Part shown: in pieces, positions 2,254-30,739 of the stretch | Numbering within the stretch: position 1 is the first letter of the stretch | How the letters are laid out: every line of letters begins with the position of its first letter | Assembly (NCBI RefSeq): GCF_004010195.1 | Contig: NC_057718.1 | Span: 227,035-269,710, forward strand | Length of the DNA: 42,676 bases | Direction of reading: 5' to 3' | From: Chiloscyllium plagiosum | Lineage: Eukaryota | The notes under the pieces: generated by a model | Seen by the model: the letters and a program-made list of their open reading frames with translations, nothing else | What the model was told of the DNA's origin: nothing | The model's database searches: none | Position numbers and translations under genes: made by a program

Positions 2254-3170
2254 TCACAACATCTTTCTGGTAGAAAGGAGATCAGATTTGCACGCAATAT
2301 TCCAAAGGTGGCATAGCCAATTTCTGTACAGCCGCAACATGACCCCCCAACTCCTGTCCTCAATACTCTGACTAATAAAGGAAAGCATACCAAATGCCTT
2401 CTTCACTATCCTATCTACCTGTGACTCCACTTTCAAGGAGCTATGAACCTGCACTCCAAGGTCTATTCAGCAACACTCTCTAGGGCCTTACCATTAAGTA
2501 TATAAGTCCTGCTAGGATTTACTTTCCCAAAATGCAGCACCTCACATTTATCTAAATTAAACTCCATCTGCCACTTCACAGCCCATTGGCCCATCTGGTC
2601 CAGATCCTGTTGTAATCTCAGGTAACCTTCTTTGCTGTCCACTACTCTTCTAATTTTGGTGTCATCTGCAAACTTACTAACTGCACCTCTTACGCTCAGA
2701 TCAAAATCATTTATACAAATGACGAAAAGTAGTGGGCCCAGCACCAATCCTTGTGGCACTCCACTGGTCACAGGCCTTCAGTCTGAAAAACAACCCTCCA
2801 CCACCGCCCTCTGTCTTCTACCTTTGAGCCAGTTCTGTATCCAAATGGCTAGTTCTCCCTGTATTCCATGAGATCTAACCTTGTTAACCAGTCTCCCATG
2901 GGGAACCTTATCGAATGCCTTACTGAAGTCCAAATAGATCACGCCCTCATCAATCCTCTTTGTTACTTCAAAAAACTCTATTAAGTTTGTGAGACATGAC
3001 TTCCCATGCACAAAGTCATGTTGACTATCCCTATCCCGAATCAGTCCTTGCCTTTCCAAATAAATGTACATCGTGTCCCTCAGGATTCCTTCCAACAACC
3101 TGCCCACCACCGACATCAGGCTCACTGGTCTATAGTTCCTTGGCTTGTCCTTACAACTTTCTCAAATAGT
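2254..3170 (-). mobile_element. CR1 LINE ORF2 (RT) fragment, disrupted
   Basis: ORFs contain KSCLTNLIEFF, YLDFSKAFDKVPHGRL, SGVPQGLVLGPLLF, KFADDTK and WQMEFNLDKCEVLHFG. Confidence 0.9.
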
Positions 3171-7639: not shown

Positions 7640-10490
7640 TATTGGGAGGCCTTTAAAAGTGAAATAGGTAGAATTCAAGTTATATATGCCCCTGTGAGTA
7701 TTTGGTGAAACATTGGCAGGAATAGGAAACCCTGGATGACAAGAGATATTGTGGCTTTGGGCAGAAAATAAAAGAGGTGGGACTCAGGTACAGGCAGCTC
7801 GGAATGAGGGAATCCCTGGAGGTTTGTAAGGGATACAGGAGTTTACCAGAGAAAGGAATCAGCTGGAGACAGTGGAAAGGGTGCAAGAGATAATCTTGGC
7901 TAAGAAGATTAGGGTGTATCTAAAAATGGTTCTTTAAGTATGTAAAAGGAAAATGAATAACTAGAGAGAGAGAAGAGGGCACCTCAAAGACCCATGTGGC
8001 CATGTATGATTAGGACCACAGGAGATGGGTGAGGTCCTTAATGAATATTTTTCTCTGTGTTTACCATGGAGAAAGGGATGAAGAGTTGGAAACTTGGGTA
8101 AGGTAGTGGTGATATCTTGGGGACAGTCCATACCACAGTAGGGGAGGAGTTGGATGTATTAGAAAACATGAAGGGGAATAGATTTCCTCATGTTGACCAT
8201 ACAGATCCAAAAATACTGCAAGAGGTTAGAGAAGGAATTGCAGCCACCATGGCAGATGTTTTTACATCATTGTTAGCCACTGGTAAGGTCCCAGAAGGCT
8301 GGTGGGCAGCGAATGTTGTGCCCTTATTCAAGAAGGGCTGCAAATAAAAACCTGGTTACTATAGATCAGTAATCCTAACATTTAAGGTAGGTGTATTGCA
8401 TGAGAAGATTTGGGGAGATGAAATATCTAGGCATTTGGAGAGACAGGGCTTGATAAGGTGAAGTCAAATTGGCTTTATGCGTGGGAGATCATGCCTCACA
8501 AATTTGTTACTGTTCTTTAATCAAGTGACCAAGAAGGTTGACAAGGACAAGGCGTTAGATATAGTCCATATAGGTTTCAGTAAGGCCTTTGATGAGGAAG
8601 GCAGGAAGGCAGATTACTACCTAAATTTAGTCAAGTTAGGTAAAGGGGCAGTACAAAGAAATCTGGGTGTTCTTTTACACCAGTCAATGAAGGCAAGCAT
8701 GCAGGCACAGCAGGTAGTGAAGAAGGCTAATAGCATGCTGGCCTTCATAACAAGAAGGATTGAGTATAGAAACAAAGAGGTCCTTCTGCAGCTGTACAGG
8801 GCCCTGGTGAGACCGCACCTGGAATATTGTGTGCAGTTCTGGTCTCCAAATTTGAGGAAAGACATTCTGGCTATTGAGGGAGTGCAGCGTAGGTTCACAA
8901 GGTCAATTCCTAGAATGGCGGGACTATCTTATGTTTAAAGATTGGAGCAACTGGGCTTGTAAACCCTTGAATTTAGAAGACTGAGAGGGGATCTGATTGA
9001 GACGTATAAGATTATTAAAGGATTGGACACTCTGGAGGCAGGAAACATGTTTCCGCTGATGGGTGAGTGCCGAACCAGAGGACACAGCTTAAAAATACAG
9101 GATAGAACATTTAGGACAGAGATGAGGAGAAACTTCTTCACCCAGAGAGTGGTGGCTGTGTGGAATGCTCTGCCCCAGAAGGCAGTGGAGGCCCAGTCTC
9201 TGGATTTGTTTAAGAAAGAGTTGGATAGAGCTCTCAAGGATAGAGGAATCAAGGGTTATGAAGATAAGGCAGGAATAGAATACTGATTGAGGATGATCAG
9301 CCATGATCATAATGAATGGTGTGCAGAATGGCCTACACCTGCACCTATTATCTATTGCCTATTGTCTATATTCTCGAGTGTAGATCATTTGAAATGCAGG
9401 TGAGCTGGCAAATTGGATACGCAATTGTCTTGATGGTAGGAAGCAGAGGGTAATCGTGGAAGGATGCGTGTTGTACTAGGGGCGGATGATTAGTGGAGTG
9501 CCTCAGGTGTTGGGGCCATTGCTGTTTGTTATCTATATCAATGATTTGGATGAGAATGTATAAGGCTTGATTAGTACGTTTGCAGATGACACAAAAATAG
9601 AAGGTATCGTGGACATGATGAAGGTTATCATAAATTACAGCAGGACATTGATCAGCTGGGGAAGTGGGTCTAGAAATTGCAAATGGAGTTTAATATAGAT
9701 ATGTGTGATGTCTTGCATTTTGGAAAGTTAAATCAAAGTAGTAGTTTCATACTCTATGTTATGGCCTTAAGTAGTATAGTGGTACAGAAGGATCTTGGAG
9801 TTCAGGTGCATGGTTCTCTGAAATTGGAGTCACAGGTAGACAGAGCAATGAAGAAGGCTTTTTAGCACACTGACCTTCATCAGTCAGGACATTGAGTATA
9901 GAAGTTGGGAGGTTATGTTGCAGTTATACAGGATGTTTGTGAGGCCGCACTTGGAGTATTGTTATCAGTTTGGGTGACCTTGCTATAGGAAGGATATTAT
10001 TAAACTGGAAAGAGTGATGAAGACATTTACAAGAATGCTGCCAGGGTTCAAGGGTCTGACTTATCGGGAGAGGTTGGACAAGCTCAGGCTTCTTCTACTT
10101 TAGAACATAGGAAACTGAGAGTGCATCTAATAGAAGTGTATAAGATCATGAGAGACATGGATAGGGTGAATGCAGTCTTTTCTCCCAGGGTTGGGGAATT
10201 GAGGGCTAGACGGCATCAGTTTAAGGTTGGAGGGGAAAGAAGACAAAGTAACCTGTTGGGCAACGTTTTTACACAGAGGGTGGTACGCATATGGAATGAG
10301 CTGCCAGTGGACATTGTTGAGGTGGGTACATTAACAACAATTAAAAGGCATTTGTATAAATACATGGATAGGAAAGGTTCAGAAGGATATAAGCCAAGTG
10401 CAGGGAAATCAGGTTAGCGAAGGTGGACATGGTATTCGGTATGGACCTGTTTGGGTCAAAGGGTCTATGCTATAGAACTCTATGATGTAA
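7640..10490 (+). mobile_element. Old CR1 LINE ORF2 (about 2 kb, decayed), interrupted by a younger CR1
   Basis: Motifs in order: VPEGWWAANVVPLFKKG, GRSCLTNLL, FSKAFD, [insert], SGVPQ, FADDTK, QMEFN, FTQRVVRIWNELP, then tail ctatgatg. Confidence 0.85.
8598..9370 (+). mobile_element. CR1 LINE 3' portion nested in the older CR1
   Basis: Encodes [19 protein letters not shown] and RNFFTQRVVAVWNALP, with tail (CTATTGT)n. Same subfamily as 39013-39652. Confidence 0.9.
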
Positions 10491-12636: not shown

Positions 12637-13368
12637 TGTGAGAAACTAAGCTCACACACTTCAATAATTTCAGTCCGAGACAAAATCTGAATCAGTAGTG
12701 TCCTTTATTTTACTCTTGCAAGAGGGTGTGATATCCACTGTCTACAAGGCAAGGGACACACACACACTAAATTCAATTAATACACGATATTTATATAATT
12801 TGGTTTCTTTTTTTTTCATTGCTCCTCCCCTGTTTACATCTTCCACTTCCCTAAGACTGGCCCCATTACTCCTGTTTATCTCTTGCCTTATCCGACCTTA
12901 TCTCTGACAAAATGCTTATTTCTGGCCTCACAAGGCCATTTGACATCATCCCGCTGTAAGTCATTGTTAGGCATATTCTTTCTTCACCATTATCTACTCC
13001 CTCCATCTGTACCTTCCCCTACCATACTGATCCTTATGACCCTTTTAATTGGGGTTTATTCCTGTGTCTCTGTAAAAGTGGGAAACAGATGTTTATACCT
13101 ACTGTTTGTACAGGCGTATCTAGCTTAACTTCCTCCCCTCACAGCATCTTATCTATTCGCCTGTAATATCTACCATTGTTTTGCAGTCATGTATCATTCT
13201 GGCATACAATTTTAGCTAATACAAAAACAATTATGTATTTCCCCCACATAGTTTCCATTCTTGTTGACTCAGCTCTTGGCTGAAACAATTACACACTGGT
13301 TTGAGTTCATTTACTTTGTATAAGTAATTAGAATTGCAGAAGTAACACTACTTTACCTATATCCCACA
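12637..13368 (-). repeat. ERV-A 3' LTR (732 bp)
   Basis: Direct repeat of 21568-22298. The minus strand runs TGTGGGATATAGG...TTTCTCACA, with TATATAAA at ~12790-12797 and AATAAA at ~12704-12709. Confidence 0.95.
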
Positions 13369-13370
13369 AT

Positions 13371-13385
13371 TTCCCCTTTTTCTTT
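13371..13385 (-). promoter_or_regulatory. ERV-A polypurine tract
   Basis: Minus strand AAAGAAAAAGGGGAA, then AT, immediately before the 3' LTR TG. Confidence 0.9.
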
Positions 13386-13387
13386 AA

Positions 13388-15132
13388 TTACCATTTGTTA
13401 TCTTCTGCAATTTTTCTTTTAAGCATTGCCCCCGAAATTCAAAATTCGCATCATTCCGGAGATTTTATCCATCTTGGTCTCACTCATCCCCTCATTATTT
13501 AGTCGATAAAGCTCCTCTGCCTGATTCCCTTTTAGGGGCATCTGTTTCATCAAGGCTGTCTCAATCAGTCTTTGGGTGAGCCCTCATATACAGGGTATGA
13601 TACAACAGCCAATGGCCACCAATACCCCGACTACTACTATCAGCGAAGTAAGGATAGAAACCACTACCCCCTTCCATTTTCCAAACCATGATTCAAGCCA
13701 TCCCATGAGAGTTGCATCTAATCCTGAATTCTCAGCCAGTTCCTCTGCTAAGGTAGTCAAGCCCCTTAAGGCCCGAATAATTGAACCATCAGGTGCAGTG
13801 TTATTAGGAATAAAGGTACAACAACTTCCTCCTAACATCACACACACACACCGCCTTTTTCTGCTAAAATCATGTCAAGGGCCATTCTGGTTTCCCATGC
13901 CATCCTACTTGTCACATCAAGCTGTTCTGATATTCCTTTAACCGCATCTCTTGTATAATTTATAAATCGCTGTTGATTGTAGAAAATGTAATTTATCCAA
14001 TCTACAATTTTATTAATTGTTACCCACCAGAAGAGAGCTGACTCAAAGCCAGCTGCAATCTGGTTATGAGAGCTGACTCAAAGCCAGCTGCAATCTGGTT
14101 ATGAGCCTTGAATTCATCAGGTACCCCGGGGAACCTTTAATGCTGAGTAGTTCCCTCCCTTCTCCATTTTGGTAACATTCTTAATCTCTGTACATAATTT
14201 CAGCTCCCCCAGATTTCTCGACCGACTTGTACCTTGTCTACGCACCACACGACGTGTGATTTCCGACTGCAGCGGAAAATGTGGGGGGGATTTTTGCATC
14301 TTTCTCCTCCAAGGGAGGGAACATCAGAGATAGGGAGGTACAATTCCTATCATACCATGCAGCCTCATCCTGATACAGGGCTATCATACATTTCATGCCT
14401 TTCCTGTCTCGCTTCCACCCGAGCGGAAAGGGAACCACCTGGGCCACTGGCCTACCGGAGGCTCATGCAGAGCAATTGATCTTGTTCAGACTTTTTACAG
14501 TATACTTTACCCATTCAACACAGGCATTTGCATCCCCGTACCCAGTCTCTATCTCGATGGTCTGTTTCAAGTCCTTTACCTCTATAATTTTTACTACTTT
14601 AGGGTCAACAGGAGGGGTGAAAGGTTGTATCTTATTATCCAGTAATTCTGCCCATTTTCCCTGTCCTACACTAATTCGAAAACAACAGCCCGAGAAATCC
14701 TTCCCGTTTGCTTTCATTTTTATCCCAAATGTTTCATTTAATTGTATCTCATAGATGCCCCCCCCCCCCCCAGAATTGCTTCATGCCATGTGGTTTTCCT
14801 TATTGTTAGGTATATTGGGTTACATTTTTTATTGGGACAATCGCGAGCTGGTCGGAAGGGGGCCCGGTGTACTGTGACGAGACCATTATACCAAGTACCA
14901 TCCCCGAGGCCATCCCCATATGGACTTCTGAGCTGCGGTACTGTGTCTGATTATCTACATCCCCACAAGTTACTAAGCTGCATGCATCAGCGTCTATTAC
15001 TTGTGGATTATCAGACTCAGGAACCGTTAATAACATGTACGAAAATGATATTTGACAAAATCCCAATACTAAGAGGGCTAGCATCATAACTCTAAGCATT
15101 CCCAGTATTCTAATCATCATGCTTAAGCACAA
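13388..15132 (-). pseudogene. env: ERV-A envelope (gamma-type SU/TM), disrupted
   Basis: Hydrophobic signal-like N-terminus, CSA* (broken CXXC), NKNVDWINYIFYNQQRF, CVMLGGSCC (CX6CC), TM anchor VVVSILTSLIVVVGVLVAIGCCIIPCI. Carries frameshifts, an internal deletion and a 35-bp duplication. Confidence 0.9.
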
Positions 15133-17774
15133 AAAGACTTAATATACAATCTTACAGAAATAATCCCGTGCTCGCGCCGCCACTGTATAGCCAGTTACTC
15201 AAAGTCTCTTTAGTCTGAGTTTCAGCGGGTCTTGCGTTGATTCAGCTGTCCAGACTTCTTCCTCAACTGGAGGGTCCACTGGCCCTTTGATCCGAGTGTA
15301 GTGAGTCCAGTCTTTCTCCGCCGTCCTTATTGCCGTTTCGGTCAAAAGAGCCTGGTACGGCCCTTCCCAGTCCGGCTGCAATTTAGTCTCTGTCCATGAT
15401 TTTACTAAGACCCAATCGCCCGGCCGGGATGAACGGTGAATTCAAGGGGTGGAGTCTGTGCCAATAAACCCTGTTTCCTAAGGAAAGACAAAGAGGAGGA
15501 CAAGCCTAGTATATACTTCTTTAAAAACAAATCTTTAGTTTCGGGAATTGGCAATTCTCCATTCGTCCCCTGGTAAGGTAATCCAAATAAGATTTCATAG
15601 GGGGATAGTCCCAAATCTTTCCTTGGGGCTGTTCGTACTCGCAAGAGAGCTATAGGTAAATATTTGGTCCAAGGGAGTCTGGTTCCTATTATCAATTGAG
15701 AGAGCTGTCGTTTGAGTGTTTGGTTCATTCTCTCAACCCTTCCCGATGATGGCGGGTGCCATGGAGTATGGAACTCCCAGGAAATTCCCAACCCTTTCAT
15801 TACCCCCTGTAACACTTTAGAGGTAAAATGAGTTCCTTGGTCGGAATCTATACAGTTCACTAGCCTATATCGGGGAATTATGTGCTCTAATATTGTTTTA
15901 GACACCCCACTCGCAGTGGCAGTAGCTAGGGGTATGCCTCAACCCAACCAGATAGATGCATCCATATTCCCTAAGAACTAAATCACACATTGCTTGTACT
16001 CCCCAATGGCTGCCTTGGTGTAGGACGGCCATAATCTCCCGCATCATCATTTTGTTTAACATTTCCCTTCCATCAGGTAACCTCCAATGCCCATCTGCTG
16101 TTTTTACAGCCCCTAAATCTCTCAATTCTTTTTCTTCTCTTTCAGTAAGTATAGGAGCTTACCTAGGACCTGGGACAGTTGGTATTAGGGAATGAATCAC
16201 CACTTCTTGTGGGTTCAGGGCTGCTTCCCTAGCCACTTCATCGGCTAATCTATTCCCCCTAACTTCTGGTTCATTTCCTTTCTGATGACCATTTACATGC
16301 ACTACTGCTATTTCTCGGGGGAGTCATAGGGACTCCAAGACCTGTTTAATCAACTCCTCATGTACTAATTCCTTCCCCCGGCTATTGATCAGTCCTCTTT
16401 CCTGCCATATCTTTCCAAAGTATGCACAACACCAAATGCATATTTAGAGTCAGTGTATATTGTTCCCTCTTTATTTTCTAATGTCCTAAGGGCTCTTTCC
16501 AATGCATAGAGTTCGCAAGTCTGAGCTGACCACCCATTTGGCAACCTTCCTGCCTCCACCACATTACCGTTTGTCCCATCTACGACTGCATACCCATTAT
16601 GTCTTTTCCCTTCAGTCACCCGGGATGATCCATCTATAAAAGGTCGGGCTCCTGCATGAAGTGGAACATCTCTCAGGTCCGTGCGGACCTTAGTTTGGTA
16701 TTCTATAATGTCAAGGCAGCCGTGCTCTGGATTCTGAGGAGAGTCTCCTTTCCCTTTCCAAAGAAAGGCAGCTGGATTTAAACAATTGTCCGTGACCAAC
16801 ACTAGATCATCCTTTTCTATTAATATTGCCTCATATTTCAGAATCCGCGAGTCTGTCAACCATCGCCCAGCTTTTTGGTTTAGGATCGTTCTCACTTGGT
16901 GTGGGGTGCTTACTATTAGGGCTCCCCCAACTGTAAGCTTTCTGCTTTCCTCCACCAACAGTGCAGTGGCAGCCACAGCCTGCACACACTCAGGCCACCC
17001 CCGGGATACTGGATCCAATAGCTTTGAAAGATATGCTACTGGCTGTCAAATTCCTCCTCACCTCTGGGTTAATATTCCCAAAGCCGCTCCCTTATCTACG
17101 GTAGCAAAGAGGTGGAAAGGTTTATCTAGAGAAGGTAAGGCTAACACGGGGGCATGGATCAGATCTGTTTTGAGTTCCTCAACTAGTTCGTTTTCCTCAT
17201 CATCCCAACTTAAACACTTTGGTTCCCCCTCTAATAGTTTGAGATATAATTTCTTAGTCTTCTGACCATGGGAATCTATCCACAATCTGCAATATCCCGT
17301 TAGGCCCAAAAATTTGCATAACTCCCGTTTAGGCCTGGGCAGTGGCATCCTCACTATTCCCTCTATCCGTTCTGGGCCTATCTTTCGCTCTCCCTCACTA
17401 ACTAAATGTCCCAAGTATTTCACTTCTTGCTCCACATTTTGTAATTTGTTTTTAGATACTCCCAGTCCTTGCTGGCCCAGGAAATTCAATAATTTGTTAA
17501 TGGCTTCTACTACTCTTTCTCTTCTTTTTCCTGATACTAAGAGGTCGTCTACATACTGCAACAGGGTAGTCCCCTTGGGGCTGCTAAATTTCTCCAATAT
17601 TTGTTCTAACATCTGTCCAAATAAATTTGGGGATTCCGTAAACTCCTGGGGGAGCGCGGTCCACTGGTATTGCTGTTTCTGTCCTGTCTTGGGGTCTTCC
17701 CATTCAAAGGCGAACAAATTCCTACTTTCCTCCGCCAAGGGACAAGCCCAAAAGGCAGCCTTTAAATCTATCAC

Positions 17775-17905
17775 CTGATTGGATCACCTGATGAAGGAGC
17801 ATCACTCCGAAAGCTAGTGCTTCCAATTAAACTTGTTGGACTATAACCTGGTGTTGTGTGATTTTTAACTTTGTACACCCCAGTCCAACACCGGCATCTC
17901 CGAAT
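17775..17905 (+). mobile_element. Short Penelope-like (second family) pseudo-LTR inserted antisense into ERV-A RT
   Basis: Interrupts WF(M)|VIDLKAAF. Contains CAC-CTGATGA-A-GGAG-catca-CTCC-GAAA-GCTA-GTG and an AATTAAA. Confidence 0.75.
17785..17819 (+). ncRNA. Minimal hammerhead ribozyme motif (second family)
   Basis: CUGAUGA/GAAA cores, helix II GGAG/CTCC, palindromic AGCT, CUA triplet, helix I CAC/GTG. Confidence 0.65.
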
Positions 17906-18603
17906 CATAAACCATTTGTGGTCATGAGAGATCTTACTTAATAACGTATAGGGGTTTGGCACCACTGGGTGCCTGATCTGTACTATTCGATTTAATGTTC
18001 TCAAATCCTGCACCAATCGATAAGTTCCATTGGATTTCCGTACTGGTAGGATTGGGGTATTATAAGGAGACATACATGGCTCAACAGTCCATCTCTAATC
18101 AGTCCCTCAATTACTGGCTGCAGTCCTCGTTTACCTTCTATGGAAATGGGATATTGTCGCTCACAGACAACATCCCCTTTCCTTTTTAAACTTATTTCTA
18201 GGGGAGGGATCTGTAGTTTTCCACAATTCCCTTCTCTAGCCCATACAATAGGGTCTATCTCTCTCTCTGCATCCTCTGTCAACATCGCCAGTTGTACAAC
18301 TAATTCTTTTTCCCAAATTCCAATCTCCAGTCCTAAGAGGATAATTAAATCTCTCCCTAGTAAGTTACTTCCTATATCAGGGATATACAACAGTTCCCCT
18401 GTGACTCTATCCTTAGGACCTTCTATCATCATAGGTTCAAATACTGGAACAGTAAATCCCTCCCCTTTTACCCCCGAAACAGCAATTGACCGTGTTGACA
18501 TTCCTACTTTCTTTGGTTTAAAATTCAGCGATGACCGTGCTGCCCCCGTATCTACTAGGAAGACTGCCTCCTCCCTACAGGGTCCCACCTTCAAGTTTAT
18601 CAA

Positions 18604-18648
18604 GGGTTCCTGGTGGCTCCCCAGGGGCAGGAACCCCTGACACCCCTA
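18604..18648 (-). promoter_or_regulatory. gag-pol amber read-through signal
   Basis: In-frame TAG at 18648-18646, followed by GGGTGTCAG and a 9-bp stem GGGTTCCTG/CAGGAACCC. gag and pro are in the same frame. Confidence 0.8.
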
Positions 18649-18817
18649 TTCTTCATCAAAATTCATAAGCGGAATTGCCCTTTCTTCCCTTTGTAGATCA
18701 GGACAGTCCCACTTAAAATGCCCTATTTTTCCACAATAATAGCATCCTGCCTGTGGAGACCTCCATCTCTGCCCCTGTCGCCCAAACCCTCTATCAAATG
18801 CTCCCCCTTGTCCTCTC

Positions 18818-19786
18818 NNNNNNNNNNNNNNNNNNNNNNNNNNNNNNNNNNNNNNNNNNNNNNNNNNNNNNNNNNNNNNNNNNNNNNNNNNNNNNNNNNN
18901 NNNNNNNNNNNNNNNNNNNNNNNNNNNNNNNNNNNNNNNNNNNNNNNNNNNNNNNNNNNNNNNNNNNNNNNNNNNNNNNNNNNNNNNNNNNNNNNNNNNN
19001 NNNNNNNNNNNNNNNNNNNNNNNNNNNNNNNNNNNNNNNNNNNNNNNNNNNNNNNNNNNNNNNNNNNNNNNNNNNNNNNNNNNNNNNNNNNNNNNNNNNN
19101 NNNNNNNNNNNNNNNNNNNNNNNNNNNNNNNNNNNNNNNNNNNNNNNNNNNNNNNNNNNNNNNNNNNNNNNNNNNNNNNNNNNNNNNNNNNNNNNNNNNN
19201 NNNNNNNNNNNNNNNNNNNNNNNNNNNNNNNNNNNNNNNNNNNNNNNNNNNNNNNNNNNNNNNNNNNNNNNNNNNNNNNNNNNNNNNNNNNNNNNNNNNN
19301 NNNNNNNNNNNNNNNNNNNNNNNNNNNNNNNNNNNNNNNNNNNNNNNNNNNNNNNNNNNNNNNNNNNNNNNNNNNNNNNNNNNNNNNNNNNNNNNNNNNN
19401 NNNNNNNNNNNNNNNNNNNNNNNNNNNNNNNNNNNNNNNNNNNNNNNNNNNNNNNNNNNNNNNNNNNNNNNNNNNNNNNNNNNNNNNNNNNNNNNNNNNN
19501 NNNNNNNNNNNNNNNNNNNNNNNNNNNNNNNNNNNNNNNNNNNNNNNNNNNNNNNNNNNNNNNNNNNNNNNNNNNNNNNNNNNNNNNNNNNNNNNNNNNN
19601 NNNNNNNNNNNNNNNNNNNNNNNNNNNNNNNNNNNNNNNNNNNNNNNNNNNNNNNNNNNNNNNNNNNNNNNNNNNNNNNNNNNNNNNNNNNNNNNNNNNN
19701 NNNNNNNNNNNNNNNNNNNNNNNNNNNNNNNNNNNNNNNNNNNNNNNNNNNNNNNNNNNNNNNNNNNNNNNNNNNNNNNNNNNNNN
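18818..19786. other. Assembly gap (N run)
   Basis: Continuous N run. Confidence 1.
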
Positions 19787-19832
19787 GGAACAGGAGAATC
19801 GACGTTTCGGGCATAAGCCCTTCTTCAGGAAT
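19787..19832 (-). mobile_element. Penelope-like pseudo-LTR with hammerhead motif, running into the gap
   Basis: Minus strand ATTC-CTGAAGA-A-GGGC-ttat-GCCC-GAAA-CGTC-GATT-CTCCTGTTCC. Confidence 0.75.
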
Positions 19833-20022
19833 CTGTAGATTAGTAGTTAGTTGAGTTTTGTTTTTTCTCTTTCTCGGTATTTTTCTTTTGTTTCATTTTG
19901 GTTATTATATATTTAAGATTTAATTGTATATCAATGTTTGTACTTGAGAGTTTTGTTTATTTTTGTAAACTTGTAAAAACATTAAATTATCTAATAAAAA
20001 TATGTATAAAAATAATAATAAT
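19833..20022 (+). mobile_element. Probable L1/Tx1-type 3' UTR with A-rich tail inserted in gag
   Basis: T-rich UTR, AATAAA and an (AAT)n tail that abuts gag sequence (…KPLDELL on the minus strand). Confidence 0.45.
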
Positions 20023-20360
20023 TCATCTAATGGTTTTTAGCTCCACCCTTCTATCTTCTGTATATTTCTCTGTATGTCTGGCCATGCCTTTGTCACAAAA
20101 TGTACTTTCAAAGACACTGTGCCACTGGGTCCTCAGGGTTCATTCCAGAATATTTCCGCATTGAGTCTCTTAATCTTTGCAAGAAAGCTGAGGGAGTCTC
20201 ATCTTTCTCCTGTCTAACTTCAAAGGCTTTAGTAAAATTCTGCAACTTCGGAACTGCCTCTCTTATTCCTTTTAGAATCAGGTCTTTCAATTTTTTTATT
20301 TCTTCTCTATGCTCCGGGTTTTGGTTTTCCCACTGGGGGTCTCTGAGGGGAAACTTCACC

Positions 20361-20421
20361 TCGCAACATCGAGGGCCCAAGGGCCTGTACTGCGCTGTAT
20401 TCTTCTATGTTCTATGTTCTA
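20361..20421 (+). mobile_element. CR1 3' tail fragment inside gag
   Basis: gcaacatcgagggcccaagggcctgtactgcgctgtattcttctatgttctatgttcta matches the CR1 tails at 5980-6040 and 22765-22818. Confidence 0.8.
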
Positions 20422-21548
20422 ACTCAGCCCAGGTATACAGACTGGGCCCCAAAATTTGATCAATTTGTTCAGACAACCCCACCGGATCTTCAACCAGGAC
20501 CTTTATTTCCTTTTTAAATGTTCTGACCTCCCCACTGGTGAGGGGGGCACTTACAAACCCAATCTCTTTGTCCCCTATTGGTACCTCCCGAAGGGGATAA
20601 GTCCTTACATTCTTCCCCTTTTTCTTTTGTTTGCCCCCCTTAGGCTTTGATTTAGATCCTCCGGAGGCCTCCTCTACATCTACTGTAGCTTCCCTTTCTT
20701 TTGCTGAGGATTGAGGGTCAGGAACAACAACATCCCCGTCCACCGCCCCCCTCATCCTCCTCTTGTGAATCATCTGTTCCCTGTCCCTGTCTGTCTGTCT
20801 CTCCTCCTTCCCCATGTTCACCTAACCTGTTTTTATGGTGGGGGGGGCAGGGGGGGGGGCAAACAGCCAAGAGGATCCCAGGGACTAGGTGGGGCAGAGG
20901 GGGAATCCTTTGTCTTTACTAACATAATTCCCAAACTGCCCTTCCAACAGGACGCATAGTCCGCCTCCTCTTGACTAAAAGATTGTTTTTTTATTCACAT
21001 ACAAATCTAAATACTGACAGACCCAATCCTCGTCCAAACCATACTTTGGCCAGAAGACAGCCGGACGAACGATTTGTTCTTTGGTCCATACTAAACAACA
21101 ATATTTAATCATTTTCTTTTTATCTTTTGCCCTTGTACAAATATTGCTTGTCCATTCCCATAACATCCTCCCCAATGGACTTTCAGGAGGAATGTTACCA
21201 GGGACTTTTTCTTCTTCCTTTACTCCGTGACAGCTACCCTACCTACCCCCCATTTCCCGGGGCCCTCGCCAGTCCCTCAGCGATTAAATACCCTTTTCCT
21301 GGCCACCAAGGCAATACTTAAAAGTCAGGTTTCTTACCTTGGTCTGTGCACAGAGTTGCCTGGCCCCTTTTCACCGTATTTTCTATCGAGCTCCTGTCAC
21401 TGTCTGATTCAGATGTCTCTCTTGTGGGATGCGTACCAGTCGCCTAAGGGAGCAGACCAAACCGGGACACGAGACCGCTCCTCAATTGGTAACGGGACGC
21501 GTCTTCCCAGTGTCCAAGGCCAGCCATTCCCCCCGGCGATGGAAGAAT

Positions 21549-21565
21549 ATCCCGGACAGCCCCCA
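21549..21565 (-). promoter_or_regulatory. ERV-A primer-binding site, tRNA-Pro
   Basis: TGGGGGCT-GTCCGGGAT, a 1-nt deletion relative to TGGGGGCTCGTCCGGGAT, located 2 nt after the LTR CA. Confidence 0.9.
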
Positions 21566-21567
21566 AT

Positions 21568-22298
21568 TGTGAGAAACTAAGCTCACACACTTCAATAATT
21601 TCAGTCCGATACAAAATCAGAATCAGTAGTGTCCTTTATTTTACTCTTGCAAGAGGGTGTGATATCCACTGTCTACAAGGCAAGGGACACACACACTAAA
21701 TTCAATTATTACACGATATTTATATAATTTGGTTTCTTTTTTTTTACATTGCTCCTCCCTTGTTTACATCTTCCACTACCCTAAGACTGGCCCCATTACT
21801 CCTGTTTATCTCTTGCCTTATCCGGCCTTGTCTGTGACAAAATGCTTATTTCTGGCCTCACAAGGGCGTTTGACCACATCCCGCTGTAAGTCATTGTTAG
21901 GCATATCCTTTCTTCACTATTATCTACCCCCTCCATCTGTATCTTCCACTACCATACTGATCGTTATGACCCTTTTAATTGGGGTTTGTTCCTGTGTCTC
22001 TGTAAAAGTGGGAAACAGATGTTTATACCTACTGTTTGTACAGGCGTATCTAGCTTAACTTCCTCCCCTCACAGCATCTTATCTAATCGCCTGTAATATC
22101 TACCATTGTTTTGCAGTCACGTTTCATTCTGGCATACAATTTTAGCTAATACAAAAACAATTATGTATTTCCTCCACATAGTTTCCATTCTTGTTGACTC
22201 AGCTCTTGGCTGAAACAATTACACACTGGTTTGAGTTCATTTACTTTGTATAAGTAATTAGAATTGCAGAAGTAACACTACTTTACCTATATCCCACA
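21568..22298 (-). repeat. ERV-A 5' LTR (731 bp)
   Basis: Direct repeat of 12637-13368 (about 25 differences by eye), adjacent to the PBS. Confidence 0.95.
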
Positions 22299-23035
22299 TA
22301 AATCCTTCTGTTCCTGTCCTGAGGGTTACTCACTCTGTGTGTCTGAGTCTCTCTCTATCCCTCTGCCTCTCCCTGGAGTTTGCACAGTCCATCTGCATGT
22401 GTTTCTGTATTCCTCCATCTCTCTCTGTGTGGACTTCTCAGCCTGTCTGCCTGTTTCCCTTTGTCCCTCTATCTCTCTCCCTGGGGTGTGTCATCCCAAG
22501 TCTTCCTGTTCCTGTCTATCGCTCCATGGGTGTTTTTCTCTCTCTGTCCGCCTGTGTCTCTCAGTCTCTCTAACTCTGCCTCTGGATTTAACTCTGTCTG
22601 TCTCTCCTCTCTTTATGTATGTATCTCTATCTCTCTCTCTCTGGTTTTCATACTTAGCCAGTAGCAGTGGTGGACTCTCCCTCTTTATGGGCATTTAACC
22701 GGGCATTGGATAGGCATATGGAGGATAGTGGGCTAGTGTAGGTTAGGTGGGCTTGGATCGGCCCAACCTCGAGGGCCAAAGGGCCTGTACTGCGCTGTAT
22801 TTTTTTCTATGTTCTATGACCCCTTGTATCTCTCTATCCCTCTGTCTCTCTCCTTGGGGGATTCACGTTGTCTGCCTCTGTCTCTCTCTGTCCATCTGTC
22901 CCTTTCCCTGTGGATTTCATTGTCTGTCTGGGTGTCTCTCCCTATTTCACACGCTATGTCTCTGTTTCTCTATACCCCTCTGCCTCTCTCACTGGGGTTT
23001 CCACAGTCTGACAATGTGTGCTTCTCCTTCCCCCC
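22299..23035. repeat. CT-rich satellite continuation, with a CR1 tail at ~22655-22820
   Basis: Same motif as 10495-12636. Confidence 0.75.
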
Positions 23036-25005: not shown

Positions 25006-25684
25006 TGTGGGATATAGGTAAAGTAGTGTTACTTCTGCAATCATAATTACTTATGCAAGGTAAATGAACTCGCATCAGTGTATAATTGTTTCAACCAATA
25101 GCTGAGTCAACAAGAATGGAAACTATGTGAAGGAAATACATAATTGTTTTTGTATTAGCTGCAACATGCCTGCAAAGAATGATAGATGTTACAGACAAAT
25201 AGATAAGGTGCTGTGAGGGGAGGGGGTTAAGCTAGATACGCCTGTACAAACAGTAGTTATAAGCATCTGTTTCCCGCTTCTGCAAAAACAAGAACAAAAC
25301 ACAATCAAGAAGTCATGAGGTCATAAGGTCATAACAAGTAAGGGAGGATATACCTGCCCACAGCAGGATGTGGTCAAACGGCCTTGTGAGGCCAGAATAA
25401 GCATTTTGTCACAGACAAGGCCGGATAAGGCAAGAGATGAATAAGAGTAATGGGCGCCGGTCTTAGAGAAGTGGGAGATGTAAACAGGGGAGGAGCAATG
25501 GGAGGAGAGAAGAGAAACAAATTACATAAATGTTGTGTACCAGTTGAATTCAGTGTGTGTGTGTGACTGCCTTTGTACACAGTAGACACCACACCCCTCT
25601 TGCAAGAGCAAAATAAATGACACTACTGATTCAGATCTTGTCTTGGACTGAAATTATTGAAGTGAGTGAGCTTCATTTCTCACA
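25006..25684 (+). repeat. ERV-B 5' LTR (679 bp)
   Basis: TGTGGGATATAGG...TTTCTCACA, direct repeat of 30061-30739, AATAAA at ~25612. Confidence 0.95.
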
Positions 25685-25686
25685 AT

Positions 25687-25704
25687 TGGGGGCTCGTTCG
25701 GGAT
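25687..25704 (+). promoter_or_regulatory. ERV-B primer-binding site, tRNA-Pro
   Basis: TGGGGGCTCGTTCGGGAT, 17/18 match to the tRNA-Pro PBS TGGGGGCTCGTCCGGGAT. Confidence 0.92.
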
Positions 25705-25997
25705 ATTCTTCCATCGCCGGGGAGTGGCTGGCCTTGGGTACTGGGAAGACGCGTCCCGTTCCCCATTGAGGAGCAGTCACATGTCCCGGTTTGGTCTGCT
25801 CCCTTGGTCGACTGGTACGAATCCCACAAGAAAGACATCTGAATCAGACAGTGACGGGAGGTTGATAGACAATACGGCAAAAAGGGGCCAGGCAACTCTG
25901 TGCACAGATCAAAGTAAGAAAATTGACTTTTAAGTCCTGCCTTGGTGGACGAGATTGAGTTTTAGTAGTTAACAAGGGACTAACGAAGGAACTCAAT

Positions 25998-26480
25998 ATG
26001 GGTTGTGCTGTGGGTAAGGAAAAAGCCTCCGGGAGAACAAAAGAAGAAAAAGGCAATGGAAATGGAGGCGTGGTCCCTATCAACATCCCTCCAGAAAGTC
26101 CGTTGGGCAGGATGTTGTGGAATTGGAAAAGGAATACTTGTACAAGGGAAAAAGATGATTAAATATTGTTGCTTTGTATGGACTAAGGAATCCATTCTTC
26201 GTCCCGCCGTCTTCTGGCCAAAGTACGGGTCGGACGAAGACTGGGTTTTTAAATATTTGAATTTATATGTCAATGAAAAACAGCCTTACAGTCAGGAGAA
26301 ATCAGATTATGCTTCAAGTCGGAAGGGCTAGTGGCTGAAGGGCTACTGAGGGTACACTTTGTAACTAAATCATGGCCAGACATCCAGAAAAATATTCAAA
26401 AGATAGAGGGCTGAAGCGAGACGCACCCAGAGGTGTTGTTGCGGGAAGCTCAGAAAGTGCCTGTGAGATATGGTGTGAGA
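25998..26480 (+). pseudogene. gag: ERV-B gag remnants (MA-like N-terminus joined to a capsid C-terminal piece)
   Basis: MGCAVGKE...IPPESPLGRMLW...KMIKYCCFVWTKE..FWPKYG, then LLRVHFVTKSWPDIQK after a large deletion. Confidence 0.8.
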
Positions 26481-26744
26481 GAGAGATAATGAAAAGAGTT
26501 GTACAGTTGGTAGAAAGTTTAACCCTTTGTGATTTGGTTTGAATGCACATTTGTTTGTTGGTGATTGAATGTTTGTGCTTTGTTCCCTGGAGCTTGAGAT
26601 CCGGGACTGTTTTGAATCTGATTTTTATTATGGAAATTTAACATGATTTATTTTAAGGTTAAGTGTCAGTGACCTGTCATATTGATTCATGGTTAATTTA
26701 AAACATGACTGCGTTAATTCATTGTTAATTAAAGAATGGAAAGC

Positions 26745-27214
26745 TACATTACTGGCTGATGAGGTAACGAAAGAAGCAGCTCTGAATCCACAGGAAGCGG
26801 TGGTTTATTCCGTAATACCTACTGTCCCAAGTCCTCGGGAAGCTCCTATCTCTGGCCACTGCCAATTCCCGAAACTAAAGATTTGTTTTTAAAGAAGTAT
26901 ACACTGGGCTTGTCCTCCTCTTTGTCTTTCCTCAGGAAACAGGGTTTATTGGCACAGATTCCACCCCTTGAATTCACCGTTCATCCCGGCCGGGCAATTG
27001 GGTCTTAGTAAAATCATGGACAGAGACTAAATTGCAGCCGGACTGGGAAGGGCCGTACCAGGCTCTTTTGACCGAAACAGCAATAAGGACAGCGGAGAAA
27101 GGCTGGACTCACTACACTCGGATCAAAGGGCCAGTGGACCCTCCAGTGGAGGAAGAAGTCTGGACAGCCGAATCAACGCAAGACCCGCTGAAACTCAGAC
27201 TGAAGAGACTTTGA
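26745..27214 (+). pseudogene. pol: ERV-B pol remnants (RNase H end fused to integrase C-terminus)
   Basis: LADEVTKEAALNPQE...PREAPI joined to LPIPETKDLFLKKY...WEGPYQ...LRLKRL*. Confidence 0.85.
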
Positions 27215-27280
27215 GTAACTGATTAAACAGTGGCGACGCGAGCGCGGGATTATTTCTGTAGGATTGTATATTAAGTCTTT

Positions 27281-30037
27281 TTGTGCTTCAACATGATTTT
27301 TAGAATGGTGGGGATGCTTCGGGTTATGATACAAGCTCTCTTAATATTGGGATTTTGTCAAACATTATTTTCATATGTGTTATTAATGGTCCCTGAGTCT
27401 GATAATCCACAAGTAATAGACGCTTATGCATGTAGCTTAGTAAATTGTGGGGATGTAGATAATCAGAGACAGTACCGCAGCTCTGAGATACATCTTAAGT
27501 CCATATGGGGATGGCCTCGGGGATGGTACTTGGTATAATGGTCTTGTCACAGTACACCAGGCCCCCTTCCGATCAGTTCTCGATTGTCCCGATAAAGAGC
27601 GTAACCCAATATACATAACGATAAAGAAAATCACATGGTCTGAAGCGATTGTCGGGGTGGGGGGGCACCTGTCAGGTACAATTAAATGAAACATTTGGGA
27701 TAGAATTGAAAGCAAACGAGAAGGATTTCTCGGGCTGTTGTTTTCGAATTAGCATAGGATAGGGAAAACGGGTAGAACTACTGGGTAATAAGATACAACC
27801 TTTCACCCCTCCTGATGACCCTAAAGTAGTAAAAAGTATAGAGGTAAAGGACTTGAAACATACCATCGAAATAGAAACTGGGTACGGGGATGCAAATGCC
27901 TGGGTTGAATGGGTAAAGTATACTGTAAAAAGTCTGAACAAGTGCACTTGATATGCATGTGTCTCCGGTAGGCCAGTGGCCCAGGTGGTTCCTTTTCTGC
28001 TCGGGTGGAAGCGAGACAGGAAAGGCATGAAATGTATGATAGCCCTGTATCAGGATGAGGCTGCATGGTATGATAGAATTGTACCTCCCTATCTCTGATG
28101 TTCCCTCCCTTGGAGAAGAAAGACTTAAAAGCACCACCCCCCCACTACGTTTTCTGCTGCAGTTGGAAATCACATGATGTGTGTGCGTAGACGAGGTACA
28201 AGTCGGTCTAGAGATCTGGGGGAGCTGAAATTATGTACAGAGATTAAGAATGTTACCAAAATGGAGAAGGGAGGGAACTACTCAGCACTAAAGGTTCCCC
28301 GAGCGGATCTGTGGTGGTACTGTGGAGGCAAAATATTGCGACCCACCCTACCTCCGGATTGGAGAGGGATATGTGCAATTGTACAATTGGCAATTCCATT
28401 TACCCTGGCAGTTGAGAAGGAAAAGATAGTAGAGAAAAATGGTAGGAGTAAGAGATCACTGTTAGACACTTCTTTCGATGGCAAGATTTATCTAGACTCT
28501 ATAAGACCATAAGACCATAAGACATAGGAGTGGAAGTAAGGCCATTCGGCCCATCGAGTCCACTCCGCCATTCAATCATGGCTGATGCGCATTTCAGCTC
28601 CACTTACCAGCGTTCTCCCCGTAGCCCTTAATTCCTCGAGACAACAAGAATCTATCAATCTCGGCCTTGAAGACATTTAGCGTCCCGGCTTCCACTGCAC
28701 TCCGTGGCAATGAATTCCACAGGCCCACCACTCTCTGGCTGAAGAAATGTCTCCGCATTTCTGTTCTGAAATGACCCCCTCTAATTCTAAGGCTGTGTCC
28801 ACGGGTCCTAGTCTCCTCGTTTAACTGAAACAATTTCCTAGCATCCACCTTTTCCAAGCCATGTATTATTTTGTACGTCTCTATTAAGTCTCCCCTTAAT
28901 CTTCTAAACTCCAACGAATACAATCCCAGTATCCTCAGCCGTTCCTCATATGTTAGACCTGTCATTCCAGGGATCATCTGTGTGAATCTCCGCTGGACAC
29001 GTTCCAGTGCCAGTATGTCCTTCCTGAGGTGTGGGGACCAAAACTGGACACAGTACTCCAAATGGGGCCTAACCAGAGCTTTATAAAGTCTTAGTAGTAC
29101 ATCTCTGCTTTTATATTCCAACCCTCTTGAGATAAGAGACAACATTGCATTCGCTTTCTTAATCACGGACTCAACCTGCATGTTTACCTTTAGAGAATCC
29201 TCGACTAGCACTCCCAGATCCCTTTGTGCTTTGGCTTTATTAATTTTCTCACCATTTAGAAAGTAGTCTATGCTTTTATTCTTTTTGCCAAAGTGCAATT
29301 CCTCACACTTGCTCACGTTAGGAGTCCCTAGGGGGATACCTGATGAGTTCAAGGCTTGTAACCAGATTGCAGCAGGCTTTGAGTCAGCTCTCTTTTGGTG
29401 GGTAACGATTAATAAAAATGTAGATTGGATAAATTACATTTTCTATAATCAACAGTGATTTATTAATTATACAAGAGATGCGGTTAAAGGAATACCAGAA
29501 CAGCTTGATGTGACAAGTAGGATGGCATGGGGGAACAGAATGGCCCTTGATATGATACTAGCGGAAAAAGGGTGTGTGTGTGTGATGTTAGGAGGAAGCT
29601 GTTGTACCTTTATTCCTAATAACACTGCGCCTGATGATTCAATTACTCGGGCCTTAAGGGGCTTGACTACCTTAGAAGAGGAACTGGCTGAGAATTCAGG
29701 ATTAGATGCAACTCTCATGGGATGGCATGAATCATGGTTTGGAAAATGGAAGCAGGTGGTAGTCTCCATCCTTACTTCCCTGATAGTAGTAGCTGGGGTA
29801 TTGGTAGCCATAGGTTGTTGCATCATACCCTGTATACGAGGGCTCACCCAAAGACTGATTGAGACAGCCTTGATGAAACAGATGCCCCTAAAGAGCATTC
29901 AGAAAGAAGGGCTCTACCTGTTAAACAATGAAGGAATAAGTGACCTCAGGGAGATTTCGAAAATAAATGAAATTTTGGGTAAGATGCTCATCAATTTGGA
30001 AGTGACAGACAAGAAAAATGCAGAAGGTAACAAATGA
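27281..30037 (+). pseudogene. env: ERV-B envelope, disrupted by stops and a CR1 insertion
   Basis: *YAC (broken CXXC), LWWYCGG, furin site RSKR, GVPRGIPDEFKA, NRMALDMILAEKG (ISD-like), CVMLGGSCC and TM anchor. Confidence 0.92.
28504..29318 (-). mobile_element. Young CR1 LINE 3' end inserted antisense in ERV-B env
   Basis: Uninterrupted ~240-aa CR1 ORF2 C-terminus and tail (CTTATGGT)n. It splits env codons ATA|GGA (DSI|GVPRG). Confidence 0.92.
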
Positions 30038-30042
30038 TAATT

Positions 30043-30058
30043 AAAGAAAAAGGTGGAA
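30043..30058 (+). promoter_or_regulatory. ERV-B polypurine tract
   Basis: AAAGAAAAAGGTGGAA followed by AT and the 3' LTR TG at 30061. Confidence 0.88.
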
Positions 30059-30060
30059 AT

Positions 30061-30739
30061 TGTGGGACATAGGTAGCGTTACTTCTGCAATCATATTTAC
30101 TTATGCAAGGTAAATGAACTCGCACCAGTGTATAAATATTTCAGCCAAGAGCTGAGTCAACAAGAATGGAAACTATGTGAAGGAAATACATAATTGTTTT
30201 TGTATTAGCTGAAATGTGCCTGCAAAGAATGATAGATGTTACAGACAAATAGATAAGGTGCTGTGAGGGGAGGGGGTTAAGCTAGATACGCCTGTACAAA
30301 CAGTAGTTATAGGCATCTGTTTCCCGCTTCTGCAAAAACAAGAACAAAACACAATCAAGAAGTCATGAGGTCATAAGGTCATAACAAGTAAGGGAGGATA
30401 TACCTAACAATGGACCGCAGCAGGATGTGGTCAAACGGCCTTGTGAGGCCAGAAATAAGCATTTTGTCACAGACAAGGCCGGATAAGGCAAGAGATGAAC
30501 AAGAGTAATGGGCGCCGGTCTTAGAGAAGTGGGAGATGTAAACAGGGGAGGAGCAATGGGAGGAGAGAATAGGGACCAAATTACATAAATGTTGTGTACT
30601 AGTTGAATTCAGTGTGTGTGTCCCTGCCTTGTGGACAGTGGACACCACACCCTCTTGCAAGAGCAAAATAAATGACACTACTGATTCAGATCTTGTCTCC
30701 GACTGAAATTATTGAAGTGAGTGAGCTTCGTTTCTCACA
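30061..30739 (+). repeat. ERV-B 3' LTR (679 bp)
   Basis: Direct repeat of 25006-25684, followed by TSD ATTG. Confidence 0.95.

Follow-up and report, generated by a model that had tools for sequence, protein, structure and literature searches.

A broken gammaretrovirus-like (class I) provirus and its large family in the genome of the shark Chiloscyllium plagiosum

Introduction

Endogenous retroviruses (ERVs) with a gamma-type envelope (Env) are already on record from cartilaginous fish. A screen of 974 fish genomes, reported as a preprint, found them in six cartilaginous fishes, three of which hold more than 500 copies, and recorded 46 orthologous ERV groups in the orectolobiform shark genus Chiloscyllium (10.1101/2021.11.23.469661). 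The CmiERVs of the elephant shark form three lineages that cluster with snakehead retrovirus and the epsilonretroviruses, none of them being gamma-like on the tree of that paper (Han 2015, PMC4422223), and the study by Xu and co-workers has the retroviruses of three cartilaginous fishes scattered through the tree (PMC6001957). Here we analyse a provirus on the minus strand, at positions 12637–22298, of a 42,676-nt stretch of Chiloscyllium plagiosum DNA (contig NC_057718.1, positions 227,035 to 269,710), the whole of which is termed the window.

A further described system bears on one detail of this locus, the primer-binding site (PBS) from which reverse transcription starts. In the ETn/MusD elements of the mouse, PBS forms that match the tRNA perfectly and common forms that do not are both reported from all parts of the tree; reversion is ascribed to a 50:50 inheritance of the tRNA copy, and the imperfect form is suggested to be favoured because it is silenced more weakly by 3′ tRNA fragments (Schorn and Martienssen 2020, PMC7472051).

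The element is, in all probability, a germ-line ERV of gammaretrovirus-like (class I) type, now dead, and belongs to a large, long-lived family of a galeomorph shark. An earlier interpretation of the same letters, made without database searches and referred to below as the sequence-only reading, had called it a near-complete class I provirus, possibly of an unnamed lineage, in a chondrichthyan host.

Structure of the provirus

A repeat search of the window returned a sequence of about 731 nt present twice in direct orientation, the two copies forming a pair of long terminal repeats (LTRs; Table 1). Every coding signal is on the minus strand, and the LTR at 21568–22298 is therefore the 5′ one. 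Aligned with MAFFT, the two copies differ by 23 mismatches over 730 aligned positions (11 transitions, 12 transversions) and by two indel events, a divergence of p 0.0315, or 0.032 as a Kimura two-parameter distance (K2P). The PBS stands off the 5′ LTR by a spacer of 2 bases (AT). The locus thereby shows the full layout of a Retroviridae provirus, with paired TG..CA LTRs, a PBS by the 5′ LTR, a polypurine tract (PPT) by the 3′ LTR, and the remnants in the order gag–pro–pol–env.

Table 1. Features of the provirus, listed in the direction of its transcription; Pfam matches come from a scan of the stop-to-stop pieces of the minus strand
Feature	Position	Strand	Remarks
5′ LTR	21568..22298	(-)	731 nt; TG..CA ends
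TATATAAA motif of 5′ LTR	21719-21726	(-)	
AATAAA of 5′ LTR	21635-21640	(-)	
PBS	21549..21565	(-)	17 nt; complementary to tRNA-Pro 3′ end
N-terminal gag (matrix-like) remnant	20987..21166	(-)	Aligns with first 55 residues of bird Gag-Pol P0090
Capsid (Gag_p30) remnant	20022..20611	(-)	Two frames
Pfam Gag_p30	20111-20404		E 6.5e-17
Unrelated dispersed repeat inside gag, visible part	19787..20021	(-)	Continues into N stretch
969 N inside gag	18818..19786	none	Unreadable
Single CCHC zinc knuckle, nucleocapsid	18703..18744	(-)	C-X2-C-X4-H-X4-C
gag–pol junction	18583..18648	(-)	One in-frame UAG (18646-18648); strong hairpin 8 nt on
Protease (DTGA) and start of reverse transcriptase (RT)	18004..18645	(-)	Pfam RVP
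Pfam RVP	18004-18645		E 4.9e-5
Short-repeat insertion	17775..17902	(+)	128 nt; separates RT fingers from palm
Pfam RVT_1	17061-17783		E 4.7e-23
RT palm/thumb (YVDD) and connection	17061..17774	(-)	Longest open piece of element, 241 aa
RT connection and RNase H	16162..17045	(-)	Two frames, in-frame stops
Pfam RNase_H	16392-17045		E 3.8e-10
Integrase: zinc-finger remnant, rve core, MLV-type C-terminal domain	15202..16158	(-)	About 64 residues lost near 15955; two frameshifts
Pfam rve	15408-15938		E 1.7e-4, below Pfam cut-off
Pfam MLVIN_C	15202-15441		E 2.4e-8
env	13419..15120	(-)	Signal peptide, surface subunit (SU), furin-like site, transmembrane subunit (TM), membrane anchor, tail
Immunosuppressive-domain (ISD)-like stretch and CX6CC	about 13841-13874	(-)	TM
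PPT	13369..13385	(-)	Adjoins 3′ LTR
3′ LTR	12637..13368	(-)	732 nt; TG..CA ends

For the N-terminal gag pieces no credible Pfam family (Gag_MA included) appears even at E-values up to 10. Nucleocapsid and protease share one frame across the single UAG, and the RNA hairpin that begins 8 bases further on has a predicted dG of −33.1 kcal/mol with a z-score of −1.75. The Rfam model of gag/pol readthrough, GP_knot1, falls exactly at this junction, with 22.1 bits and an E-value of 0.17, far below its gathering score, and is the sole match in a permissive Rfam scan of 17700–20100; over the whole window, Rfam yields no match at gathering score and ARAGORN finds no tRNA gene. From its layout, the junction would represent a readthrough signal of the type used by murine leukaemia virus (MLV).

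Damage to Pol was mapped by tblastn with a 1163-aa Pol relative (P0003) that is 73 % identical in RT. The mapped segments run through frames 3 and 2, the 128-nt insertion, frames 1 and 3, the integrase gap near 15955, and finally frames 1 and 3, with four frameshifts and four in-frame stops in all. The repeat inserted into RT returns 1053 first-look candidates in the genome, its best other copies being 98 % identical and copies often having an adjoining inverted partial copy. For the repeat inserted into gag, of which 235 nt are visible, there are 1606 first-look candidates and 39 scored non-self matches at 88–95 % identity. The distance from the capsid end to the zinc knuckle is 1278 nt here, whereas the bird Gag-Pol P0090 spans only about 70 residues between the same points, so about 1 kb of this interval is foreign, and mostly unreadable. 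Judged from the spacing of its flanks, the N stretch should hold the end of the capsid and most of the insertion of about 1 kb; irregular N runs also occur in 14 of 20 sampled sibling loci, described below. Both insertions carry a word of the CUGAUGA or CUGAAGA type followed by GAAA, which we read as hammerhead-like, and within 17700–20100 no Rfam hammerhead family is found at E-values up to 1. A 41-nt stretch of the capsid region (20364–20404) recurs with 93 % identity at 22764–22804, 466 nt outside the provirus.

The env remnant has at least four frameshifts, at least two stops and one perfect tandem duplication of 35 bp, the last of these lying at 14035–14104, upstream of the heptad region of TM. 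Its CX6CC motif straddles a frameshift within a (GT)n run, and the C-x-x-C site of SU, which is present in four of seven sibling copies, is here cut by an in-frame stop. No Pfam family is matched by the env pieces of this copy, even at E-values up to 10, and its TM piece aligns weakly (E 0.016–0.06) with the TM cores of Mason–Pfizer monkey virus Env, HERV-FRD, syncytin-1 and syncytin-2, over the ISD-like stretch ending in the first Cys of CX6CC. Siblings are more informative. One whose TM pieces lie in a single frame (L041:2769–3650) matches TLV_coat at an E-value of 1.1e-5 (24.9 bits; the cut-off is 22.5), as well as the TM of syncytin-1 at 3e-6, and a second (L039) also passes the TLV_coat cut-off, at 4.7e-5. 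Since these unbroken siblings match TLV_coat and the syncytin TM, the family has a covalent gamma-type Env.

Much of what the sequence-only reading had picked out is borne out by these results. The paired LTRs are in place with their TG..CA ends, and their divergence, put by eye at about 25 of 730 positions, is close to that measured. The tRNA-Pro PBS and the PPT were both located, the former at 17 nt instead of the canonical 18, as were the CCHC, DTGA, YVDD, RNase H and integrase features, the rve match alone falling below the Pfam cut-off. The read-through arrangement of gag and pol is present as a single frame interrupted by one UAG with a hairpin downstream, which suggests, in turn, how it may have functioned, and the CX6CC of env is found with its ISD-like stretch, albeit across a frameshift and with TLV_coat matched via siblings only. 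The description of the provirus as near-complete does not hold: all three genes are broken, two repeats are inserted, part of the integrase is lost and part of gag is unreadable, such that the term is true solely of the order of the remnants.

Family, age and neighbouring copies

The genome searched was the 3.56-Gb assembly that contains the window. With the LTR as query there are 2266 first-look candidates, and the 40 that were scored, the query included, all cover at least 730 of the 732 nt at 91–100 % identity. The RT query gives 6957 candidates; in the 150 for which scores were obtained, identity starts at 90 % for the copy next to the query and declines steadily to 58 %, with open frames around the RT matches of up to 1552 aa. 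Twenty sibling loci of 10 kb (L027–L046) were then chosen by a shared word comprising the LTR end and the deletion type of PBS discussed below. Their LTRs are only 74–94 % identical to that of the present copy, some over only about 120 nt, and it follows that several LTR subfamilies share the terminal 10 nt and the PBS words. Many of these siblings are internally deleted forms of 5.3–7 kb. The Pol relative P0003 is covered to at least 75 % in 7 of the 20 and to 0 % in 5, for which N runs are partly responsible.

A 3′ LTR is in view for 15 of the 20 siblings, and 13 of these give a usable pair (at least 260 aligned nt). The K2P of the 13 pairs ranges from 0.004 to 0.214 with a median of 0.028, to be set beside 0.032 in the present copy, which is thus middling in age for its family by LTR divergence. 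These values describe deletion-type copies, those with a canonical PBS having been sampled as pieces of 1.5 kb.

A second, related provirus occupies 25006–30739 of the window on the plus strand, 2.7 kb away and oriented the other way. Its length is 5.7 kb, with LTRs that are 94.2 % identical over 675 nt, a perfect 4-bp target-site duplication (TSD; ATTG), and a PBS of canonical length bearing one C-to-T change. Most of the region from gag to integrase is deleted and env is retained (TLV_coat 1.1e-6, 29459–30034), in which respect it resembles the deleted forms of 5.3–7 kb sampled elsewhere in the genome. An isolated RT fragment at 2781–3161 on the minus strand (RVT_1 2e-12) lies outside both proviruses. 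Amongst the remaining repeats, an 813-base N run (38200–39012) adjoins a repeat of 600 nt (39013–39602) that is also found, at 91 % identity, at 8728–9326, and further dispersed repeat pairs occur in the window.

Host and classification

The single RAG1 locus of the genome contains an open frame of 1048 aa, which is 92 % identical to that of the whale shark Rhincodon typus, 87 % to Heterodontus francisci, 84 % to Scyliorhinus torazame, 80 % to Amblyraja radiata and 58–74 % to bony vertebrates. By these values the host is a galeomorph shark, which agrees with, and narrows, the chondrichthyan proposed by the sequence-only reading. Across 14 runs under three organism labels, a fraction of 0.29–0.35 of the sampled words was present, from which no conclusion is drawn.

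Against solved structures, the RT piece of the element matches the RTs of MLV and xenotropic MLV-related virus (XMRV) best (E 4.5e-48 to 1e-47), followed by foamy virus Pol at about 1e-19, Ty3 at about 1e-9 and human immunodeficiency virus at 1e-8 or weaker. Full-length named protein relatives reach RT identities of 63 % (Crotalus), 60 % (Pantherophis and Leucoraja) and 52–61 % (many birds), and a short-form relative from Scyliorhinus torazame reaches 69 % and run-assembly proteins 70–73 %, in a hit list that depends on which genomes were annotated with their repeats unmasked. In IMG/VR, a single RT protein as query found no relative, and alignment queries found 14 and then 23. These comprise twelve isolate-type genomes of 8.1–8.5 kb with RTs 38–44 % identical to that of the element (L009–L018, L020 and L076), the pair L019 and L021, 10.2 and 10.3 kb in length, a fragment of 6.3 kb, a record of 11.6 kb that is 28 % identical, and seven records of 8.5–9.0 kb that are 33–34 % identical over half of the RT piece. 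One of the isolate-type genomes, L016, matches solved RT entries of Moloney MLV at an E-value of 3e-161.

Maximum-likelihood RT trees were built from unaltered pieces, with 47 rows and then with 50, the long-branched L082 being left out of the second. Four of the seven records of 8.5–9.0 kb, delta-like in our reading of their size and similarity, served as outgroup. In both trees a node with support of 100/100 unites all class I rows against this outgroup. The twelve isolate-type genomes form a clade of their own (99/96–97), outside which the element falls, and which we take as the test of membership in crown Gammaretrovirus. The clade to which the element does belong is supported at 100/99 (47 rows) and 98/98 (50 rows), and also holds ten further RTs from the host genome, three from catshark, one from skate, two from snakes, one from a lizard and eight from birds or bird-like sources. 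Within it, shark and catshark sequences group together with support from 91/85 to 94/91, and the two catshark proteins closest to the element nest within the diversity of this one genome. On sequence grounds, we judge the element to be class I and gamma-like, and to lie outside the crown genus. An RT placed outside class I had been named in advance as the outcome that would overturn the sequence-only reading, and both trees place it inside. The assignment to an MLV-like class I provirus likewise stands, on the evidence of Gag_p30, MLVIN_C, the best RT matches, the gag–UAG–pol frame, the tRNA-Pro PBS, and CXXC and CX6CC in the family.

Variation of the primer-binding site

Relative to the 3′ end of the host tRNA-Pro, the PBS of the present copy lacks one base of 18, the other 17 being matched. 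The host possesses canonical tRNA-Pro genes, of which locus L026 holds two (CGG and AGG), and the 22-nt word of the canonical tRNA-Pro 3′ end is found at 123 genome sites with no more than one mismatch. The tRNA-like word with the deletion has no match in the genome, and a short PBS that pairs with a variant host tRNA was rejected for this reason. At three further loci (L023–L025) the 22-nt word is exact and ARAGORN finds no tRNA gene; these may be tRNA-derived repeats or pseudogenes.

The end of the LTR joined to either PBS form gives 108 junctions, and amongst the 100 listed, 51 are canonical, 43 have the one-base deletion, 4 have T at the variable position and 2 have A. The canonical 28-mer has 55 exact sites and 222 with up to two mismatches. 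Genome-wide, the short 17-mer occurs at 63 sites, mostly at the LTR end of this family, compared with 179 for the canonical 18-mer, and the deletion is accordingly concentrated in this family. With such figures, it is also less likely that the deletion arises during tRNA copying in every ERV with a tRNA-Pro PBS.

The distribution of the two forms was followed on a tree of LTR and leader with the PBS columns excluded, comprising 41 rows (21 deletion and 20 canonical copies) out of more than 100 junctions and spanning several LTR subfamilies. PBS state requires 13 changes on this tree, the mean for shuffled labels being 13.8, with 205 of 500 shuffles as low, and branches with strong support impose at least eight of the changes. 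In several closely related sister pairs the two members carry different forms. Scatter of this kind would reasonably be explained by the tRNA copy being inherited, and recombination between co-packaged genomes would produce it also. A tentative possibility, on which we would place limited weight, is that the family kept the short PBS through much of its history, with each insertion either inheriting the short form or being reset to a perfect tRNA copy; this would explain both the near-even split of forms and their random scatter over the tree. Selection may moreover have favoured the imperfect PBS in the shark family, as we hypothesise from the parallel with the mouse.

Somewhat doubtful, for its part, is the proposal that the short PBS is a mere subfamily marker, or random decay, and says nothing about replication. 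The present copy does sit in a small clade whose six rows all have the deletion, old copies gather mutations, and CpG transitions are common in the PBS. However, the changes on the tree are about as many as in the shuffles, at least eight of them on strong branches, the 100 listed junctions hold 43 exact deletion forms beside 51 canonical ones, and the commonest substitution variant of the canonical 28-mer, a CpG transition, accounts for 9 of 45 listed rows with one mismatch. The absence of the short form from tRNA-like genes, set against the 123 canonical sites, tells in the same direction.

Weighing of the alternatives

For the provirus as a whole, the notion of a near-intact and possibly functional element has almost nothing left to it. 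All of the domains and cis signals to be expected are recognisable in the correct order, but no open piece exceeds 241 aa, Pol is broken by four frame changes, four stops, the 128-nt insertion and the loss of about 64 residues, and gag and env are frameshifted and interrupted too. With regard to the flanks, both derive from one CT-rich array, degenerate and repeating about every 54 nt, of which Tandem Repeats Finder recovers only fragments, and a perfect 4-bp TSD accompanies three of four solo LTRs of the family, the 5-bp flanks of one (L003) being duplicated. Amongst the six sibling proviruses with both ends in view, the 4-bp TSD is perfect in one, agrees at three of four positions in two, and at two or fewer in three. 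It has to be considered whether the provirus is a recombinant of two family members, or was rearranged after insertion, and lacks a target duplication on that account. Its own flanks mismatch, as do those of most siblings, and one LTR elsewhere (L005, G000:C9:80591510–80595238) lies between a PBS and a PPT, meaning two tandem proviruses that share an LTR, and hence that recombination occurs in the family. Such an origin is nonetheless improbable here, as no non-self sequence of the genome matches this LTR better than its partner does (1199 bits and 96 %, the next being 1157 bits and 95 %), both flanks come from the one array, and they fit a 5-bp duplication with one mismatch, a length seen at L003. 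An epsilonretrovirus-like element, such as fish and amphibians commonly carry, is a still more remote prospect. Of the three lineages of the elephant shark, two group with the epsilonretroviruses (PMC4422223), and the class I node leaves room for such a placement; the capsid, however, matches Gag_p30 (6.5e-17), a family to which neither L019 nor L021 has a match in its gag proteins, a 6-residue stretch of RT common to all gamma isolates and the element is lacking in those two records, the integrase tail matches MLVIN_C, and the nearest named relatives are class I proteins of birds and squamates, in a clade that excludes L019 and L021 at 98–100 %. These two records are presumably epsilon-like themselves.

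A dead gamma-like copy thus remains by far the best explanation, and several points weigh against it. The 4-bp flanks do not match, the nearest to a duplication being 5 bp with one mismatch (TACAT and TAAAT on the plus strand). The class I node is a polytomy from which the two clades, L019 and L021 emerge in no resolved order, and RT identity to L019, at 40–41 %, is no lower than that to the gamma isolates. L016 is the only IMG/VR reference tied to a named virus, such that walleye dermal sarcoma virus (WDSV), salmon swim bladder sarcoma virus (SSSV) and the zebrafish ERV (ZFERV) are not placed as such. The putative readthrough signal is sub-threshold in Rfam and the z-score of its fold is modest. 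Finally, the age of the insertion would be about 7 or about 73 million years at a K2P of 0.032, a figure that rests wholly on which substitution rate is assumed, that of mammals (2.2e-9) or that assumed for a chimaera (2.2e-10; Han 2015, PMC4422223).

Proposed history and significance

In the history that we propose for the dead gamma-like copy, the source virus would have primed reverse transcription with host tRNA-Pro, made Pol via readthrough of the single UAG at the end of gag, and borne a covalently linked envelope of gamma type. Integration would have produced TG..CA ends, with a 4-bp target duplication as the presumed norm of the family, and the present copy would have entered a degenerate CT-rich tandem array. 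Later wreckage probably followed in the form of point mutations, frameshifts, the integrase deletion, the small tandem duplication in env, and two unrelated short retroposon insertions. As it stands, the copy can encode no viral protein; the LTR signals alone could still matter to the host.

Taken alone, the locus is a matter of routine annotation, a dead class I provirus that belongs among the repeats to be masked. The element does, in addition, document a large and long-active radiation of gamma-like ERVs in a galeomorph shark, with LTR-pair K2P values of 0.004–0.21. Relatives are found in catshark and skate, and the ERVs of birds and squamates are nearer than mammalian isolates, which fits the frequent host switching that has been published. 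The nested insertions should help to establish relative dates for the short retroposons that abound in this genome. The PBS pattern, meanwhile, offers a cheap genomic route to ask if the trade-off of priming against silencing seen in the mouse is general among vertebrates; if the imperfect PBS of this family persisted because it blunts PBS-directed silencing, by 3′ tRNA fragments for instance, as has been proposed for the ETn, MusD and IAP elements of the mouse, the arms race would extend back to the cartilaginous fishes.

Comparison with known systems

No paper was found that names this ERV family, published surveys having been consulted for their descriptions. The novelty suggested by the sequence-only reading is weakened, as ERVs with gamma-type Env had already been surveyed in cartilaginous fish (10.1101/2021.11.23.469661), and the element is a further instance of this catalogued type. 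Chiloscyllium, in which the 46 orthologous groups were recorded, is orectolobiform, as is the whale shark, whose RAG1 is the closest to that of the present host; the element is set beside the ERVs of that screen by description only. With the CmiERVs, again compared by description, it has in common a cartilaginous-fish host and a similar LTR divergence (0.024 and 0.033 for CmiERVs; PMC4422223).

Likeness to Gammaretrovirus of the MLV type includes a PBS for tRNA-Pro set off from the LTR by two bases, a capsid matching Gag_p30, one CCHC knuckle, a frame that gag and pol share across a UAG with structure downstream, the MLV-type C-terminal domain of integrase, and an env of the TLV_coat kind that carries CX6CC after an ISD-like stretch. 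Four of seven siblings add the CXXC of SU, and a 4-bp TSD is seen in the family at three of four solo LTRs and at the second provirus of the window. Unlike that genus, however, the RT is just 38–44 % identical and belongs to a separate, strongly supported clade, Gag_MA is not matched, and the LTRs are longer, at 731 nt. In sibling TMs, moreover, the hydrophobic stretch that we presume to be the fusion peptide appears to lie about 35 residues past the furin-like site and not at the new N-terminus. Closer are the class I proteins of birds and squamates (Crotalus, Pantherophis, Podarcis, Hirundo and Lonchura), annotated as 'NYNRIN-like' or 'Gag-Pol polyprotein', which fall in the same RT clade, share the Pfam set including MLVIN_C and Gag_p30, and are 52–63 % identical in RT, the class of host being different. 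Lastly, with regard to the PBS, the family resembles mouse ETn, MusD and intracisternal A particle (IAP) elements, as these are described by Schorn and Martienssen (PMC7472051), in that the commonest or near-commonest form departs from the tRNA primer and the forms are spread family-wide; in place of the mismatches of the mouse elements, the shark family, known here from its genome sequence, has a one-base deletion and a tRNA-Pro primer.

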